DNA from: an uncultured archaeon
Lineage (GTDB): Archaea > Asgardarchaeota > Heimdallarchaeia > Heimdallarchaeales > Heimdallarchaeaceae
Reading direction: 5' to 3'
Assembly: GCA_964549075.1 (NCBI GenBank)
Contig: CAZJUB010000013.1
Coordinates: 1-52,147, forward strand
Length of the DNA: 52,147 bases
Position numbers and translations under genes: made by a program. The notes below the pieces were generated by a model. That model was not told the DNA's origin. It was given only the letters and a program-made list of their open reading frames with translations, and did not search any database. The first letter of the stretch is position 1. Each line of letters starts with the position of its first letter. This document shows positions 3,066 through 10,088 of this stretch, piece after piece.

Positions 3066-4157
3066 TTGTTTGCTATAGGTGCCAATCTTAAAACGTGGTT
3101 GAAATTATTGATTGAAAATGAATTTAATTTGTCATTATTACGCATTCCTCAGATCTTCATTATAACTGTGGTAATTGTATTTCTTACGCCCATAGAAATT
3201 ATCGAAAAACTACTTTTCAAAAGAAAAATTAAGAAAATTAAAATGAAAATTGATCCTTTATTCATTTTAGGTCATTGGCGTCAAGGAACTACATTCCTTC
3301 ATGAATTACTTATAAGAAATCCTAATCATAGTTATATGACAATGTTCGAATCAATTTTCCCTAATCATTTTCTCTATTTTGATAAATTCATAAAAAGAAT
3401 CTTTGGTTGGTTTCTTCCTTCTACAAGACCCCAAGATGATGTGAAAATTGGTGTTGATGCACCTCACGAACATGGTTTTGCAATAGCAAATCTTTGTTCA
3501 ATGTCTGTTTACTCAGGAACATATTTTCCTCTTAATCAAGAGTACTATAATCGATATGCTGCTGGTGAGAGGTTAAGCAATAAAGAAAAAAAGAAATTAA
3601 GGTATTATTATGAGTATATTATCAAGAAACTATACTATAAAAATGGAGATAAATTATTGATTTTGAAGGATCCTATTGATACAGCAAATATCGATTTTCT
3701 TTTAGAATTATTTCCAAATGCAAAATTTGTACATATAATTAGGAATCCATACGAAGTCTTTTTTTCAACTAAGAAACTACATGAGAAAACAATACCGATT
3801 TTTAGATTGCAGAAAGGTTACCCAGATCTTGAAAAATTAATTTTTAATTCTTATAGAGATATTTATGAGAAATTCTATCAAGATTTGAAACTTATACCAA
3901 AAGAGAATTTTGTAGAGGTCAAATATGAAGATTTCATTAAGAACCCTCTTACTCAATTAAAATTAATTTATGATAAGCTTGATTTGAAAGGTTTTGAAGA
4001 ATCTTTACCAGAAATACAAGCATTTCTTAATCAGGAAGCGGATTATGGTCGAAGTAAATACAGAATCTCTAAAAAGGATAAATTGGAAATTTACTCGCAT
4101 TGGGGTAAAATAATAGAAATTATGGGGTATAAAAAACCAGAAACTATAGTAAAATAA
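3066..4157 (+). CDS. Sulfotransferase, tandem paralog
   Basis: PLFILGHWRQGTTFLHEL, LILKDP, FVHIIRNPYEVFFS; long near-identical blocks with the upstream gene (RPQDDVKIGVDAPHEH). Confidence 0.9.
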   Translation: MFAIGANLKTWLKLLIENEFNLSLLRIPQIFIITVVIVFLTPIEIIEKLLFKRKIKKIKMKIDPLFILGHWRQGTTFLHELLIRNPNHSYMTMFESIFPNHFLYFDKFIKRIFGWFLPSTRPQDDVKIGVDAPHEHGFAIANLCSMSVYSGTYFPLNQEYYNRYAAGERLSNKEKKKLRYYYEYIIKKLYYKNGDKLLILKDPIDTANIDFLLELFPNAKFVHIIRNPYEVFFSTKKLHEKTIPIFRLQKGYPDLEKLIFNSYRDIYEKFYQDLKLIPKENFVEVKYEDFIKNPLTQLKLIYDKLDLKGFEESLPEIQAFLNQEADYGRSKYRISKKDKLEIYSHWGKIIEIMGYKKPETIVK

Positions 4158-4254: not shown

Positions 4255-5541
4255 TTAATCACCTATTACTCCAATAGTTGGGATAATTGGTTTAGAAAAC
4301 TGGAATTTCTTTGTCCATATTGTTAAAAACAAAGTTCCTACGAAAATAATTATACTTGCGATCATCATTGTATTTGTTATTCCAATAGCATCCGCTGTTA
4401 AACCTGAAACTGAAAGACATGAAAAACTGAATACCTGTATATAGGCATTAGTTGCACTATAAGCTCTCCCTCTTACTTCGTTGGGAACCTCTTCTGCAAA
4501 ATATGCATTGATACTAAGACTCATCATACCGTTAAGAGTTCCCATGAAAAATCCGAAAACACCAATTATATAGATTGAAGTTGTAAATTGAAAGATAAGA
4601 TAATATACAACTAAAGAAAGTGCTCCAGAAATTATCGCTCTTGATCGTCCAATTTTTCGTTCATATTTCCCAAAAAGCAAATTACCAACAACGGTTCCTA
4701 GAGCGATGATTGCACCTATTATACCATATTCTGTTTGAGCTAGATTTTCAAAGAGAAAATTACCACCATATCTAACTTCGAAAATCCAAGGATATAGTAA
4801 AGGTCCAGCAAAAGCTGAACCTATTACTAATACGGTAAATAATAAGATGAGCACCTTGATGATTTTATGTTTAAAGATGAACATTATACCCTCCTTTAGG
4901 TCTGAGTAAACTGTATTTACTGTGATTGATTCTTTTTCTCTTGATGCAGATGGGATTAGAGTAAAAAATATCACTAAGCCAGATAACAAGTAACAGCCAC
5001 TAACTATCCAGAAAGCAGGTGGCCCAAAGAACGCATATATTGGTGCAGCTACTAGAGGTCCTAGCACTGCAAATGTTTGAAAAATTAATCTACTTATACT
5101 GATTGCTTTAACATATAATTTTAATCCCACCATTTCAGGGATAGCTGCTGAACGAGGTGAAGCAAAACTTGCAGATCCTACTCCATCAAGAAAAGCAATC
5201 ACTAGTAAGAAATAAAGATTATGAATAAAGGGGATGGAAATTATTGATATTGCACGTAATATATCAGAGGAAACCATTATCAATTTACGACTAATTCTAT
5301 CTGCAAATACCCCGGATATTGGTCCGATAAGTATCCAAGGTAAAGTCTGTGCAGCTAAAACCAGAGTCATTTCTGTTTTAGACCCAGTAAAGCTATACAC
5401 ATAAAGAACAATCGAGATTCTGAAGACAGCATCTCCAAAATTGCTAAAAGTTTGACCAAAAAGCAATTTTACAAAATTTTTATTTTTAAATACATCTTTG
5501 AATGATGATTCTTCGTTATTTTGCGAAACTGCTGTAGTCAT
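4255..5541 (-). CDS. MFS transporter (DHA3/H+ antiporter-like exporter)
   Basis: About 12 hydrophobic segments, motif A GVFADRISRK, GQTFSNFGD in TM1, EVRGRA in the C-half; GAGAGGT RBS. Confidence 0.92.
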   Translation of the reverse strand: MTTAVSQNNEESSFKDVFKNKNFVKLLFGQTFSNFGDAVFRISIVLYVYSFTGSKTEMTLVLAAQTLPWILIGPISGVFADRISRKLIMVSSDILRAISIISIPFIHNLYFLLVIAFLDGVGSASFASPRSAAIPEMVGLKLYVKAISISRLIFQTFAVLGPLVAAPIYAFFGPPAFWIVSGCYLLSGLVIFFTLIPSASREKESITVNTVYSDLKEGIMFIFKHKIIKVLILLFTVLVIGSAFAGPLLYPWIFEVRYGGNFLFENLAQTEYGIIGAIIALGTVVGNLLFGKYERKIGRSRAIISGALSLVVYYLIFQFTTSIYIIGVFGFFMGTLNGMMSLSINAYFAEEVPNEVRGRAYSATNAYIQVFSFSCLSVSGLTADAIGITNTMMIASIIIFVGTLFLTIWTKKFQFSKPIIPTIGVIGD

Positions 5542-5566
5542 GAGAATTACCTCTCGAAGAAAAAGA

Positions 5567-5671
5567 TTATTGAAGAGATCCCTTATACATTACATACTCT
5601 TCAAGAGATTCTAACACTTTTTTGCGCCATTCTTTTTGAATTAAATCTTGCTTTTTATTTTTACTAATCAT
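5567..5671 (-). CDS. Microprotein C, 34 aa (MISKNKKQDLIQKEWRKKVLESLEEYVMYKGSLQ)
   Basis: Below the track cutoff; ATG preceded by GAGGTGA; ends 25 nt before the MFS start. Confidence 0.6.
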   Translation of the reverse strand: MISKNKKQDLIQKEWRKKVLESLEEYVMYKGSLQ

Positions 5672-5697
5672 ATTATCACCTCTTTATTTTGAGCTAA

Positions 5698-5865
5698 TCA
5701 CATAGTACTGAGATATTTATTTATCAAATATCTGGATTGAGCTTTTGCTCTTCTTGTACGACGAGCTCTTTTGAGCTGATTCAACTCATTCTGTAATACT
5801 CTAATTTTTTCATCCAATTGCCTATCGGCCTCATTAAAGTCTAAATCTACATATTGTGTTGTCAT
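5698..5865 (-). CDS. Microprotein B, 55 aa coiled-coil + basic tail (MTTQYVDLDFNEADRQLDEKIRVLQNELNQLKRARRTRRAKAQSRYLINKYLSTM)
   Basis: ATG preceded by GGTGA; heptad F10/L17/L24/L31; aligns ungapped with microprotein A. Confidence 0.72.
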   Translation of the reverse strand: MTTQYVDLDFNEADRQLDEKIRVLQNELNQLKRARRTRRAKAQSRYLINKYLSTM

Positions 5866-5898
5866 TTTTTTCACCATTTTATGTTCAACAAAGCAACT

Positions 5899-6063
5899 CT
5901 AACCTCCAAGGAATCTTCCTGAGGATAAATTGTCACGCAGTGTTCTCTTTCTTTTCTTGTTGCTCTTCCTGCTTGTTTCTACCACTTCTTGCAGATCTTT
6001 GATGTTTTCATCTAACTTCTTGTTAATGCTTTGAAGTTCTATTTCGAGTTTTTTTGTTGTCAT
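5899..6063 (-). CDS. Microprotein A, 54 aa coiled-coil + basic tail (MTTKKLEIELQSINKKLDENIKDLQEVVETSRKSNKKRKRTLRDNLSSGRFLGG)
   Basis: ATG preceded by AGGTGA; heptad L10/L17/L24; paralog of B; first ORF after the operator/promoter region. Confidence 0.72.
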   Translation of the reverse strand: MTTKKLEIELQSINKKLDENIKDLQEVVETSRKSNKKRKRTLRDNLSSGRFLGG

Positions 6064-6075
6064 GCGATCACCTTT

Positions 6076-6174
6076 TTCTCACCTTTAGTGAGAACTGTTC
6101 TCACACCACGTAAGAATTCTACATATAAAAAGTTTTCTCACAATGAGTAAGAACTGATATCAGAATGATGAGAA
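6076..6174. promoter_or_regulatory. Array of palindromic operators TTCTCAC-N5-GT(G/A)AGAA around divergent promoters
   Basis: Copies at 6076-6094 (perfect arms), 6098-6116, 6135-6153 and a degenerate one at ~6157-6174; minus-strand TATA (TTTATATG) at ~6122-6129 lies between the pairs. Confidence 0.75.
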
Positions 6175-6213
6175 AACTTAAATACTTGAAAGAGATAATT
6201 AAAAATAGTAAAG

Positions 6214-6864
6214 TTGGTAATAATGTTATATAAGGATTTAATTGATTATGAACCTAAACCTGTATTGTTTATTGAAGATGAAGCTACAATGGATATACTC
6301 CGTAATCCGCTCTATACTCCCATACTCTCAATCTTGAGACATGGAATAAAAACACTCAAAGAGATCAAAGATGAGTATAAAAACCACACAAAAAAAACAG
6401 AAATTCCTTCAGATAAATCTCTATATCGCCATCTAAAACAACTTAAAGATGCTGGATTAATAGCAGAAGCAGGAAGGAGAGTTTATACAGAACAGACTTT
6501 AACTGAAAAACTATTTAGCAGAACTGCATATTTCTTCTATTCTCGACCAAGTGATCTTGAAAAGAGGAATAGGGAGCAACATCAACGACAAGCTGAACTT
6601 TTAGCAAAATTATTTAAAATTACTTTAAATATTCCTCAACCGCCTTCAGAAGGTATGTTGAAGATAACAGATAGAATCAAATTAAGTAGTATAAATAGTC
6701 ATGATGATCTTTTTAAGAATCATGTTGAAGAATTAGTTAAACTCTTTGAAAACGTAACTGCTACAGATCTTCAAGCGGTAGTAGAGATGTACTGGATTAT
6801 CAAACTGATGTTGGGGAAATCTGAATTTGACGAAGACTTCAAGAAATATCTCAAAGTAACTTAA
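6214..6864 (+). CDS. Winged helix-turn-helix (ArsR-like) transcriptional regulator
   Basis: PILSILRHGIKTLKEI...SDKSLYRHLKQLKDAGLI HTH followed by wing (EKLFSRTA); likely start ATG 6223. Confidence 0.85.
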   Translation: MVIMLYKDLIDYEPKPVLFIEDEATMDILRNPLYTPILSILRHGIKTLKEIKDEYKNHTKKTEIPSDKSLYRHLKQLKDAGLIAEAGRRVYTEQTLTEKLFSRTAYFFYSRPSDLEKRNREQHQRQAELLAKLFKITLNIPQPPSEGMLKITDRIKLSSINSHDDLFKNHVEELVKLFENVTATDLQAVVEMYWIIKLMLGKSEFDEDFKKYLKVT

Positions 6865-6927: not shown

Positions 6928-7401
6928 TTGAATAGTATGAAAAACGAGACTAAGAGTTTAATTGATGAGCTACTAGTTCGTCCTCATTCAGCTTTTCTAG
7001 CTACAATTGATGAAAATAACAATCCTTCAATAAGAGCAATTTTTAACTTAAGATGTAAAGAAAGATTTTCTCACCCAGCCAAAATAATAGAGGAGTATGA
7101 TGACAATCCCTATACAGTATATATTTCTACAAACACTTCTTCTATAAAGATGAAACATATTATTGAGAACAACAATGTTGCAATTTACTTCAGTCTTCCT
7201 GATGAAAGCAAAGGTATGATGTTACAAGGAAAAGCAGAAATTCTTGATGATATTGAATTTAAGAAGAAAATTTGGGAAGAATCATGGACAATGTATTATC
7301 CTGAAGGGTACACTGACCCAGATTTTACAATTCTAAAGTTTATACCTATTGTAATGAGAGGCTGGTATAGAGGACAACATGCGTATAATTTTGAAGCATA
7401 A
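6928..7401 (+). CDS. Pyridoxamine 5'-phosphate oxidase-like FMN-binding protein (general stress protein 26 type)
   Basis: AFLATIDENNNPSIR, YISTNTSSIKMKHI, LQGKAEI, YYPEGYTDPDF; likely start ATG 6937. Confidence 0.88.
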   Translation: MNSMKNETKSLIDELLVRPHSAFLATIDENNNPSIRAIFNLRCKERFSHPAKIIEEYDDNPYTVYISTNTSSIKMKHIIENNNVAIYFSLPDESKGMMLQGKAEILDDIEFKKKIWEESWTMYYPEGYTDPDFTILKFIPIVMRGWYRGQHAYNFEA

Positions 7402-7478: not shown

Positions 7479-8348
7479 ATGCCTAAGGAAGAACAAGTCT
7501 TCAATGTGAAACTAATATCTGAATTTGAAGAGAAAGCTAAAGAGGAATATATCAAAGTTTCAGATGGTTCAGAGGTAAAAATCTTAATTACTAAAGCACC
7601 AAAAGATAGTTTTAATGGGTACACTTTCTTAATTATTCCCGGGTGGGGTACTATCGTTCCTGGTTGGGAAGAGGTCTTAATGGAAGCAATTAAGGATTTC
7701 AACATTTTATATATTGAGTCTAGAGAGAAAATATCTTTTCATCCTGGTAAAGGGAAAATCAAGAATGATGTGAATAGACTCGCTCTAGATGTAAAAGAAA
7801 TCATAGAGCATTTAAAAATAGACCAAAGTAAAATTGTAACTGTTACTTCTTCATTTAGTACTCTCACTATAGCAGATTTATTGGGGACTAAAAAAATTAT
7901 ACCAGCTCTTTCAGTTCTCATTGGACCAGTCTATCAATTTAACATGCCGCCTACTACTAGATATATCTTCCACTTTTTTCCAACATTCTTCTTTTATCTT
8001 ACAAAACCAATTTGGAGATGGTGGGTTAAGAAATATAAAAGCGAGGATGCGGTACAATATGCAAAATATATGCGTGTCTTGGAAGAAGCTGATCCAAAGA
8101 AATGGCGAGCAGTTACTAAGAGAGTTTGTTTCACCAAGGTTTGGGATTTATACAAACAAATCGAAGACAACTATGTAGTAGTTGTTGGCATGGAAAAAGA
8201 TAAGATGCATGCAGCTGAATTAGCGAAAAAAATTGCTAACACAATTTCAGATGCTAAATATCTAAATATGGAAACAAATAGAGCAACACATTCAGCTGAA
8301 CTGGTTAAACTAATTAGAGACTTAATGAAAAAAATTCCTAAGAGCTAA
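7479..8348 (+). CDS. Alpha/beta hydrolase fold protein
   Basis: LIIPGWG oxyanion segment, atypical nucleophile elbow TSSFS, later Asp (KDKMH) and His (ATHS). Confidence 0.65.
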   Translation: MPKEEQVFNVKLISEFEEKAKEEYIKVSDGSEVKILITKAPKDSFNGYTFLIIPGWGTIVPGWEEVLMEAIKDFNILYIESREKISFHPGKGKIKNDVNRLALDVKEIIEHLKIDQSKIVTVTSSFSTLTIADLLGTKKIIPALSVLIGPVYQFNMPPTTRYIFHFFPTFFFYLTKPIWRWWVKKYKSEDAVQYAKYMRVLEEADPKKWRAVTKRVCFTKVWDLYKQIEDNYVVVVGMEKDKMHAAELAKKIANTISDAKYLNMETNRATHSAELVKLIRDLMKKIPKS

Positions 8349-8400: not shown

Positions 8401-8781
8401 ATGGATACTTTTCATAGCGAAATTTTCAAAATTGCGGATTTTCTGTTTTTCTGTGGAGAAAGGTTATTAGAGACAGAAAGTTTCATATTAGAATTAACTA
8501 GACGAAAAAAAAAGACATCTGATGAAGATTGGAGAAAGAAAATAAAAGAATTCTTAGATGAATACAAAGAATACAACTGTCAGGTTGATGTATTAGATAA
8601 ACGAACAAATGTAACATGTTCTCTTATAAATGTTAATCCTTTGAAACTTAGGACATTATACATGGAAATAATAGCTCACTTAGATTTAAGTACTCAATTT
8701 TCCATTATTCAAACTGATGAACCTCTGATTTATTTAATAGAAGTTAAAGATGAACTAGAAAAGATTGAATTAAGAAATTAA
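8401..8781 (+). CDS. Hypothetical protein
   Basis: 126-aa ORF with ATG; converges on and overlaps the radical SAM gene stop; no motif recognised. Confidence 0.6.
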   Translation: MDTFHSEIFKIADFLFFCGERLLETESFILELTRRKKKTSDEDWRKKIKEFLDEYKEYNCQVDVLDKRTNVTCSLINVNPLKLRTLYMEIIAHLDLSTQFSIIQTDEPLIYLIEVKDELEKIELRN

Positions 8782-10088
8782 AATTCAGTTTTCTTAACCT
8801 CTAGGTAACTCCAAACAGCATCATAAGCATCTTTTTCTAATTCTTTTAGAGTTTCACTCTTATTGCTGCGAAGATATTCTTCGATATAAGGTGTAATAAC
8901 GTTATTTAGACCAATTTCAATTAGTTGACTTCTATCAAAGTTGGAGATATCTTTTTTGTAATTGTTGAGTATTTTTGCTCCTTCATCCAACTGTTTGATT
9001 TCATATCTTGAACTCTTCACGAAGAAATTTTTCAAATACGCAATTTTATGCAAAAGTTCTGCAGATTTCAAATTTATTTTATGACGACCTTCAGGGATAA
9101 ATCTTTCAGCAGTATAATCTAAACCTAATTCATAGCCATATTTATACCCCTTAATCTCTGGCCAGACTAGATTAAATTCCTCGAAAACCTTTCTGTCTAG
9201 ATTCCCATATTTATCATTATTCCCATATAGTTTTACATACTTTGGATAAGTATCAGGAAAATACTGTAAAATTGTTCTCATAAATTGGTTCTTATTTCTT
9301 CCAGGTTTCAAAGTTAATCCCCAACAATAGATAAATTCCGCACCTGCTTCTTTTGCACTTTTATAGATGGTATTGATGTTTTCATCTGTATCTCCAATAA
9401 AAGGTAAGGAAGGGTAACAATAAACTCCTGAGTGAACTCCTTCTTTTCTCAGTTTACTAATTGCTTCAAAACGTTCATTTGTTGTACTAGCATTTGGCTC
9501 AAAGATCTTCTGCATTTCCTCATCTGCTAAAGTAATTGTGAAACTTGCACAAGCATACGTTTCTTCATTTATTTTTTTAAGTAAATCTAAATCTCTAAGA
9601 ATTAGCGTATTTTTAGTCAAAAAGAAAACTGGGATTCTATATTCGTAAGCAAGTTCTAGTAGCCTCCTAGTCACCTTAATTTTTTCTTCAGCTGGTTGAT
9701 AAACATCACAAACACCTCCTCCAATAAAGAGAATAAATTTACCTTTCGATTTATTATCAGCTGAATCTCTCAGATTTGGATAATAATCAACTAAAGTTGA
9801 TGTTTTCTCACGATTAATTGGAAAGAAACCTTTCTTATTTAGATATTGCTCTAATAATTCTGGTGCATTTTTCTTTACTCTGATTCTTGTACCAAAATCA
9901 TCATGCATATAGTAACCTTCTGATTTACCATCGCAATACACACAATCATGATAACAACCTTGATAGGGATTAAGATAAACTTCAGCCCAAGAGAAAAGGG
10001 ATATTCTTGCAGTTCGAACTAAAGATTTAGCTTCATATTCTTCGATGATCATAGTGAAACCATTTTTACAGATTTTGATACTTTTCAA
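8778..10088 (-). CDS. Radical SAM protein (SplB-like/Rv2578c-like)
   Basis: LNPYQGCYHDCVYC (CxxxCxxC), DVYQPAE, LTKNTLILRD, FEPNAST; likely start ATG 10052. Confidence 0.88.
   Translation of the reverse strand: MKSIKICKNGFTMIIEEYEAKSLVRTARISLFSWAEVYLNPYQGCYHDCVYCDGKSEGYYMHDDFGTRIRVKKNAPELLEQYLNKKGFFPINREKTSTLVDYYPNLRDSADNKSKGKFILFIGGGVCDVYQPAEEKIKVTRRLLELAYEYRIPVFFLTKNTLILRDLDLLKKINEETYACASFTITLADEEMQKIFEPNASTTNERFEAISKLRKEGVHSGVYCYPSLPFIGDTDENINTIYKSAKEAGAEFIYCWGLTLKPGRNKNQFMRTILQYFPDTYPKYVKLYGNNDKYGNLDRKVFEEFNLVWPEIKGYKYGYELGLDYTAERFIPEGRHKINLKSAELLHKIAYLKNFFVKSSRYEIKQLDEGAKILNNYKKDISNFDRSQLIEIGLNNVITPYIEEYLRSNKSETLKELEKDAYDAVWSYLEVKKTEF

Follow-up and report, generated by a model that had tools for sequence, protein, structure and literature searches.

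We find that three short open reading frames (ORFs), here called A, B and C, which fill positions 5567 to 6063 of a 52,147-nucleotide stretch of DNA from an uncultured archaeon of the Heimdallarchaeaceae (assembly GCA_964549075.1, contig CAZJUB010000013.1; the whole stretch is hereafter the window), are on comparative grounds genuine conserved protein-coding genes, and that they very probably belong to a repressor-controlled operon that was assembled stepwise ahead of a gene for a transporter of the major facilitator superfamily (MFS).

The three ORFs and the MFS gene lie on the minus strand, with a gene for a winged helix-turn-helix (wHTH) regulator diverging from them on the plus strand. ORF A (6063 to 5899) encodes 54 amino acids (aa), ORF B (5865 to 5698) encodes 55 aa, or 59 aa if an alternative upstream ATG at 5877 is used, and ORF C (5671 to 5567) encodes 34 aa; the MFS gene (5541 to 4255, 428 aa) is the last cistron. 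The intercistronic gaps A-B, B-C and C-MFS measure 33, 26 and 25 nucleotides (nt), and each start codon is preceded on the minus strand by a Shine-Dalgarno (SD) word, namely AGGTGATC before A (6066-6073; also kept in the closest species, G020), GGTGA before B (5871-5875), AGAGGTGAT before C (5675-5683), where an SD of the GGTGA type is retained across orthologous loci, and GAGAGGT before the MFS gene (5549-5555). These words are complementary to the 3' end of the genome's own 16S rRNA (...GGATCACCTCCT), and the word GGTG stands at the SD position of approximately 10% of 1034 crudely called long ORFs, against a background of 1.8%. From this arrangement we infer that A, B, C and the MFS gene form a four-cistron operon and would be transcribed together. 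A sequence-only reading had already pointed to three co-oriented short ORFs of 54, 55 and 34 aa with ribosome-binding sites ahead of the MFS gene, spaced 25-33 nt apart, and their coordinates, SD words and spacing are all confirmed. It had also remarked that A, B and the MFS protein each begin with MTT, which is true of this genome but is not conserved, given that B begins with MTA, MTS, MIE or MAE in relatives, and the MFS protein with MTQ, MSE and others; the common start is a coincidence.

Coding evidence and conservation within the genus

A search with the MFS protein against 24 other genomes of the genus recovered orthologs at 69-82% identity in 12 of them (paralogs are more distant, at 50-58%), and the own locus together with these 12 gives 13 loci for comparison. 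The sequence-only reading had named conservation of the ORFs in relatives that keep the MFS-wHTH pair as a test; among these MFS loci, conservation extends to all 13 for C, to 6 of 13 for B and to 2 of 13 for A, with the qualification that A is assessable in 12 loci only, because one contig ends before its expected position. The C-type ORF always lies directly upstream of the MFS gene, with its stop codon 10-55 nt before the MFS start, and is exactly 34 aa long in 11 of the 13 loci; B-type ORFs are exactly 55 aa long in six out of six cases, and A-type ORFs 54 aa in two out of two. The closest species possesses a PNPOx-like gene, the wHTH gene (213 aa from its ATG), A (54 aa), B (55), C (34) and the MFS gene (428) in identical order and with identical lengths. 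Paralogous MFS loci (15 to 17) show no A, B or C, and weak C-like tblastn matches upstream in L033, L034, L036 and in L056 were set aside, as a hidden Markov model (HMM) gave no confirmation of them.

Selection was assessed by Nei-Gojobori counts. Synonymous divergence (dS) is saturated and non-synonymous divergence (dN) lies at 0.15-0.57 in the comparisons of A, B and C, with dN/dS of 0.20 for A against its ortholog in the closest species, 0.14-0.50 among pairs of B, and 0.15 for the closest pair of C. The pooled ratio of non-synonymous to synonymous proportions (pN/pS) is 0.36 for C, 0.48 for B and 0.40 for A in frame, against 0.77-1.54 in shifted frames, the values for C alone being 0.77 and 1.54. 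Purifying selection, a further check that the sequence-only reading had put forward, is thus indicated both by the range of dN/dS (0.14-0.50) and by the dependence of pN/pS on reading frame. In C, conservation and purifying selection span the whole peptide, and not just its C-terminal end. DNA contigs from four runs gave partial, near-identical coverage of the locus, with no usable variants, and no RNA run was found to contain it.

That A, B and C might be chance open frames within a regulatory spacer is vanishingly improbable. AT-rich spacers can harbour short ORFs, and dinucleotide shuffling of the 672-nt gap produced two or more such ORFs in 7% of cases; however, at least three non-overlapping ATG ORFs of at least 34 aa on one strand were obtained in just 18 of 5000 shuffles, and three such ORFs each with an SD in 0 of 5000. 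Moreover, SD sites are present, paralog families exist, ORF lengths are kept between species and purifying selection is specific to the reading frame, and it is the cross-species conservation of length together with the frame-specific selection that refutes the idea of chance frames.

The suggestion that these genes are hidden, falling below standard gene-calling cutoffs, does not survive inspection of public records: exact A, B and C sequences are already present, without names, in public predicted-protein collections, with exact C in NCBI, JGI, ENA and Logan protein sets. The ESM Atlas likewise holds a letter-for-letter C, and no usable neighbour was obtained from it. Literature searches returned nothing on either the A/B or the C family, although supplementary files lay outside their scope and small-protein catalogues may list them. 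One 391-aa protein (P0040), ROK-repressor-like by eye, shares a 90% identity cluster with the 55-aa B; its sequence is unrelated to B, and we reject it as a clustering artefact.

Two families of small proteins and the assembly of the operon

Judged by their composition, A, B and C are soluble, basic, hydrophilic proteins, with grand averages of hydropathy of -0.98 to -1.14, isoelectric points (pI) of 9.5-10.1, and a highest 15-residue Kyte-Doolittle mean of at most 0.18, such that no hydrophobic segment is present; no signal or leader motif was found in any of them. A and B share a bipartite organisation, in which an acidic or neutral N-terminal half (an acidic coiled coil in B) is followed by a C-terminal half of net charge +7 (A) or +9 (B), arginine-rich, with runs such as RARRTRRAKA, and C is a basic amphipathic small protein. 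The transporter matches PF07690 (4e-36, 125 bits against a cutoff of 33.4) and PF05977 (5e-21, 75 bits against a cutoff of 27), is of the 12-helix type, and has TIGR00900 (DHA3), Mef, EntS and Tap as its closest models; because its TIGR00900 score (3e-60, 204 bits) falls below the curated cutoff of 319.6, it is assigned to the DHA3 type (Mef/EntS-like) by best match only.

These properties bear on the proposal, made in the sequence-only reading, that the small proteins either serve the transporter as accessory subunits or are exported cationic peptides. Gene adjacency is what speaks for such roles, and C-like genes also precede a 180-aa membrane protein at three loci. However, the three peptides are hydrophilic, basic and devoid of a hydrophobic segment, they show no signal or leader motif, the pump is of the DHA3 small-molecule antiporter type, and many members of the families adjoin no transporter at all. 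We consequently regard a subunit or export role as very unlikely.

The B and C families are unrelated to each other (hhalign probability 0.4%), whereas A and B show a weak but detectable kinship: BLASTP aligns them over their N-terminal 25 aa at 3e-05, direct repeats in the DNA of the A/B region lie approximately 198 nt apart, and a B-family HMM scores A at 7.7e-23, a value to be read in the knowledge that A was among the sequences from which the HMM was built. Comparison of A, B and C with Pfam, NCBIfam, PHROGs and PDB sequences gave no match beyond sub-threshold coiled-coil similarity in A and B, and a match of A to a PHROG entry without an assigned function (E 4e-4) was discarded, as it covers the coiled-coil stretch only. 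The terminal GG of A was considered as the mark of a ubiquitin-like or SAMP-type modifier, and this too was rejected: A-type relatives end in GG, GD or GR, and A is a helical, charged protein of 54 aa with no match to a beta-grasp family.

When a profile of the A/B family was searched against 1.84 billion representative proteins (E <= 1e-3), 34 proteins matched, of which 30 are 35-80 aa long; the other four (291-5817 aa), which might have been fused forms, are instead repetitive coiled-coil proteins. Among 301 sampled genomes of the phylum, members occur in 20 of the 28 that share the taxonomic family, representing two genera, and in 0 of 272 elsewhere. The public records that carry B-family genes are those of Candidatus Heimdallarchaeota, which fits the Asgard affiliation implied by the sequence-only reading. 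A strict profile of C identifies members in 14 of the 24 other genomes of the genus and in 0 of 22 genomes of other genera in the order, while a widened profile recovers relatives of 34-41 aa in 20 of 30 other genomes of the same family, all ending in ...L-x-[KR]-G-S-[LF]-x, the most conserved part of the wider C family. The viral contigs of IMG/VR yielded no relative of B or C. A/B (42-55 aa) and C (34-41 aa) are thus orphan small-protein families, and both are, as far as these genome and protein searches extend, confined to one archaeal family.

Most members of the B family are separate genes, and these occur in two settings; the own genome (G000) contains two further copies, on contigs C153 and C48. 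In the first setting, a B-like gene lies approximately 500 nt from a member of an unrelated family of 140-170 aa with a CxxC...HxC pattern, and in the second it precedes the genes for an acidic protein of 77 aa and for a 415-aa coiled-coil protein that carries an ArsR helix-turn-helix (HTH) domain.

Several side observations attach to these settings. The family located approximately 500 nt from B-like genes, whose members span 130-170 aa in the loci inspected, has several copies per locus, including two in L005 (G000:C153; 750-1211 and 2471-2950), and is also found in L009-L012, L015, L016, L019-L024, L069 and L072; its proteins combine a basic N-terminus (...KTQIKSRARRY.QDL.DAPL..GLELY...) with a C-x-x-C ... 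H-x-C pattern, have no Pfam match, and bear only 'hypothetical protein' names in Heimdallarchaeota records. In L006 (G000:C48; 1-1623, minus strand), and likewise in L025 and L026, a small operon is headed by a B-like subfamily whose proteins terminate in ...EV[CV]W, followed by the 77-aa acidic coiled-coil protein and then by the protein of approximately 415 aa, in which a long coiled coil precedes a C-terminal ArsR-type HTH (PF01022, 1e-5). Most stand-alone members of the B family (P0013-P0036) end in P-x-x-x-G (...IPSQG, ...YPLAG, ...NPIRG), an ending absent from the MFS-linked B proteins.

The C family is similarly varied in its contexts. Apart from the MFS gene, genes found downstream of C-like genes include that of the 180-aa membrane protein mentioned above (3 loci), an ORF of approximately 75 aa followed by a flavin adenine dinucleotide (FAD) oxidoreductase gene (2 loci), and a small zinc-ribbon ORF at a distance of approximately 230 nt (4 loci), and at least five C-like genes (in L083, L085, L086, L087 and one L077 copy) have no credible co-directional downstream gene. 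Relatives outside the MFS operon possess their own TATA-like box together with an upstream CACAAnTTGTG motif, which occurs only four times in the own genome, in all cases in intergenic DNA.

Three of these four sites lie upstream of small ORFs, including one of 43 aa (C17:38389-38520). A second C-like gene of the own genome, of 34-37 aa, is located at G000:C22:18575-18688 (L093 1498-1611, minus strand); it carries a TATA-like box of its own, the motif GTCACAACTTGTGTTCACA..TGTG stands upstream (C22:18740), and a gene for a 183-aa membrane protein follows 75 nt downstream. The ORF of approximately 75 aa is conserved between L075 (G003:C55; 2100-2450) and L076 (G021:C86; 3100-3490), where it has its own SD, lies between the C-like gene and the FAD oxidoreductase gene, and is followed by a GC-rich hairpin with a T-run (aggaggaggtttttcctcct...ttttttt).

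The distribution of the three genes over the orthologous loci is mirrored in the phylogeny of the transporter. In a maximum-likelihood tree of 28 MFS proteins, from which two truncated rows were left out, the 13 C-linked proteins form a clade (100/100), inside which the six B-bearing loci form a clade of their own (94/92), and within this latter clade the two A-bearing loci group together (100/98). Read most simply, this nesting means that C was the first to join, that B entered afterwards in one subclade, and that A arose there by tandem duplication of B and has since diverged, which would make C the core partner of this MFS clade. Losses in the opposite direction, rather than successive gains, may alternatively account for the pattern. 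The sequence-only reading had envisaged a unitary cassette of three microproteins, and this has to be abandoned: C, B and A are present in 13, 6 and 2 of the 13 loci in nested clades, and members of each family are found elsewhere than beside MFS genes, in many cases standing alone.

Among the neighbouring genes, a PNPOx-like FMN-binding protein (PF16242, 3e-15) is encoded at 6928-7401 on the plus strand, as it is next to the regulator gene in the closest species, and is followed at 7479-8348 (plus strand) by a 289-aa protein with no Pfam match. A 436-aa ORF at 8778-10088 (minus strand) carries a CxxxCxxC motif and appears radical SAM-like by eye, and on the other side a sulfotransferase gene (3066-4157, plus strand; PF13469, 6e-30) is convergent with the MFS gene.

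Control region and possible functions

The repeated operator and divergent wHTH regulator that the sequence-only reading had placed upstream are both found, with half-sites at 6076-6174 and the regulator gene at 6223-6864 on the plus strand. A TATA-like box at 6122-6132 (CTTTTTATATG on the minus strand) is the putative promoter element of the operon. Operator O2 (6076-6103; TTCTCA-N7-TGAGAA-N3-TTCTCA) is situated between this box and the start of A, and operator O1 (6135-6174) consists of TTCTCA at 6135-6140, an imperfect TAAGAA at 6148-6153 and TGAGAA at 6169-6174. Among the 11 loci with a complete regulator gene, all share the same layout, which reads, from the wHTH start towards the operon: the wHTH TATA-like box, TTCTCA, approximately 16 nt, TTCTCA-N6-7-TGAGAA, the operon TATA-like box, approximately 20 nt, TGAGAA-N3-TTCTCA-N6-7-TGAGAA, SD and ATG. 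Exact half-sites number 4-8 per control region of 140-196 nt in all 11, against 1.07 per kb genome-wide, and palindromes of the operator type occur 20 times in the 3.2-Mb genome; 8 of these are intergenic, and 5 of the 8 adjoin members of the wHTH family. Repressors that block recruitment of the polymerase are an established mode of archaeal regulation, and operators placed around the TATA box and over the expected start site fit such a repressor.

The regulator (213 aa) is, by profile comparison, a PH1932-like wHTH protein of the ArsR type and a presumed autorepressor. A profile of 11 orthologs had PH1932 (1uly/2cwe) as its sole match in the PDB (E 2e-8), in an alignment of near full length that joins profile positions 12-190 of 211 (179/211) to positions 3-170, whereas the regulator's own Pfam matches (HTH_20, PadR and MCM_C) all fell below cutoffs. 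Eight paralogs of the regulator are encoded in the own genome, several of which face other small genes of 79-100 aa, and in another species a paralog with a TTCTCA-N6-TGAGAA operator stands opposite a C-like gene that precedes a different cargo, an FAD oxidoreductase gene.

Two of the paralogous loci in the own genome deserve separate mention. At G000:C10:53700-60500, five wHTH paralogs are interleaved with small genes of 79-100 aa, of which those of 85 and 87 aa resemble an 86-aa ORF beside a wHTH paralog in L076, and TTCTCA/TGAGAA palindromes lie at C10:54411 and C10:58991. At G000:C36:12892-15151, a wHTH paralog and a 476-aa MFS_3-like protein are encoded divergently across a spacer of just 88 nt, a pair that offers a potential natural control for what the microproteins do.

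A further feature of the operon is an oligo-T tract, T5, at 5560-5564 on the minus strand, 2 nt past the stop codon of C. Oligo-T is a termination signal in archaea, and the tract is a candidate leaky terminator or attenuator. Runs of five or more T occur within 25 nt of the C stop in 12 of 13 loci, a count that overstates its independence because the loci are related, and after 0 of 6 B stops and 0 of 2 A stops; the background is 20% of 347 short co-directional gaps and 30% of 336 convergent 3' ends. The tract may be the original terminator of the recruited C gene, retained as a leaky stop. No Rfam match was found in 5400-6300, and a conserved RNA hairpin predicted within the 3' half of C has just 7 pairs and a weak consensus energy (-1.45 kcal/mol). 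A scan for bacterial promoters and terminators, a method unsuited to archaea, stayed at chance level and gave no bacterial-type terminator.

The best explanation overall, which we put forward tentatively, is a repressor-controlled operon with trans-acting feedback peptides. The wHTH protein would bind the operators and repress both its own gene and the operon until a ligand or stress relieved this repression; the small proteins would then act in trans, with C, and perhaps B and A, binding the repressor or its DNA or RNA target and thereby feeding back on induction in the manner of an anti-repressor. A leaky oligo-T after C would yield the small proteins in excess over the membrane pump. We favour feedback in trans because members of the C and B families exist as independent genes and because C is fixed at the head of a regulated operon, and we favour the regulator as the object of this feedback because another C-like gene stands opposite a paralogous regulator that shares the operator, and because small genes repeatedly lie opposite members of the regulator family. 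For the specific function, an anti-repressor or feedback activity on the PH1932-type repressor or on a nucleic-acid target is a possibility in which our confidence is limited. More speculatively, these lineage-specific microproteins could be dedicated partners of an expanded family of PH1932-type repressors, forming a peptide-modulated switch of a kind undescribed in archaea; this is a doubtful extension, under which the peptides would provide anti-repressor or co-repressor feedback and the oligo-T tract would set the ratio of peptide to pump.

Several observations weigh against feedback on the repressor. Some C-like genes have no wHTH gene beside them and follow a different upstream motif, and the C family is for this reason not tied to a PH1932-like regulator. 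The wHTH-MFS pair on contig C36 lacks any small ORF. T-runs are common in a genome of 31% GC, at 20-30% of comparable sites, A, B and C have no similarity to known anti-repressors or to Pfam, NCBIfam or PDB families, and the related loci all come from one genus, meaning that the counts given above are not independent.

The constancy of C next to the transporter gene also invites a different and less probable account, the main rival, in which C is a cis-acting leader peptide: its translation, ending at a stop codon beside both the oligo-T tract and the ribosome-binding site of the MFS gene, would govern read-through or translational coupling. Of the four roles that the sequence-only reading had suggested, this one and that of anti-repressor are the two that still stand as candidates. 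Under this account, the C-terminal ...Y[KR]GS[LF]x would be an arrest or termination-context motif and B and A would be passengers. Its appeal lies in the position of C, always 10-55 nt upstream of the MFS start, in the oligo-T that follows the C stop in 12 of 13 loci, and in the geometry of the junction, where a ribosome terminating on C would cover the MFS SD 11-17 nt downstream. The C-terminal motif is also the best conserved part of the wider family, C-like ORFs are the first cistron before several different cargo genes, and bacterial DHA3 pumps such as Mef are controlled by leader peptides. However, at least five C-like genes lack a credible co-directional downstream gene, and the C family can for this reason function alone; furthermore, the whole of C is conserved and under purifying selection, the hairpin within C is weak (-1.45 kcal/mol), and Rfam gave no match.

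It is rather unlikely, in our estimation, that A, B and C serve as general stress proteins that bind nucleic acids or ribosomes and are co-induced with the pump without a regulatory role, in what would amount to a 'pump plus target protection' regulon. The charge of the C-terminal halves of A and B (+7 and +9), their arginine-rich runs and the pI of 9.5-10.1 would suit such proteins, as would the fact that both families are multi-copy, mostly stand-alone and varied in context, with one B subfamily preceding a coiled-coil protein with an ArsR HTH. Yet charge is weak evidence, the proteins have no homology to known RNA- or DNA-binding families, and a general stress function leaves the fixation of C before this MFS clade (13 of 13 loci) unexplained.

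Relation to known systems

No part of archaeal genomes is less well understood than their small proteins, and the Heimdall-group archaea are the closest known relatives of eukaryotes. The locus described here contributes two orphan microprotein families with a defined setting of operator, repressor and pump and with a traceable order of joining, and so provides a compact test case for distinguishing an anti-repressor from a leader peptide. Should the peptides indeed modulate a PH1932-type repressor, they would represent a regulatory module new to archaea; otherwise, the locus is a well-documented case of small-gene accretion within an operon. The practical stakes are modest, and the families are limited to one archaeal family.

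Given the absence of homology, the existence of stand-alone members and the lack of a transmembrane helix, the locus is set apart from each of the known systems considered here. AcrZ, a small membrane protein bound to an efflux pump, consists of one transmembrane helix; the microproteins are pump-linked here too, but A, B and C are without a hydrophobic segment. For the divergent regulator, the only solved relative is PH1932 of Pyrococcus horikoshii, an archaeal wHTH protein of the ArsR type with a C-terminal helical domain. Our literature search found no operator, ligand or small-protein partner of PH1932, which appears there as a family name only.

Attenuation by leader peptides has mef and erm among its examples. 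Through ribosome-dependent attenuation, such peptides and upstream ORFs regulate genes for resistance and efflux (uORF4u paper, PMC10219788). Bacterial leader peptides are the closest systems in anatomy, with a short conserved ORF directly before a DHA3-type pump and a T-rich tract between the two. The C family differs in having stand-alone members and whole-peptide conservation, and no alternative RNA structures were found at the locus. A literature search found no archaeal leader-peptide attenuator of such a kind, and to our knowledge none has been described in archaea.

Within archaea, the closest parallels are the Methanosarcina small proteins that act on transporters and enzymes, among them sP36 of Methanosarcina mazei, whose mechanism works through GlnK. 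This soluble small protein modulates a membrane transporter, the ammonium transporter AmtB1 (PMC10714827). It concerns nitrogen regulation and has no sequence relation to A, B or C, and our locus links the peptides to the MFS protein by gene adjacency.

The closest system in logic is the ArmR-MexR pair of Pseudomonas aeruginosa, in which ArmR is a peptide antirepressor of MexR at the mexAB-oprM efflux operon (PMC3290565). There, as we favour for C, a small peptide acts against a winged-helix repressor of a drug-efflux operon. ArmR, a bacterial peptide, is the product of a separate operon under NalC control, and its target is a protein of the MarR family that governs a resistance-nodulation-division (RND) pump. 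The peptides described here share no sequence similarity with ArmR; they are encoded inside the operon of an MFS pump, and the regulator that they would address is ArsR/PH1932-like.

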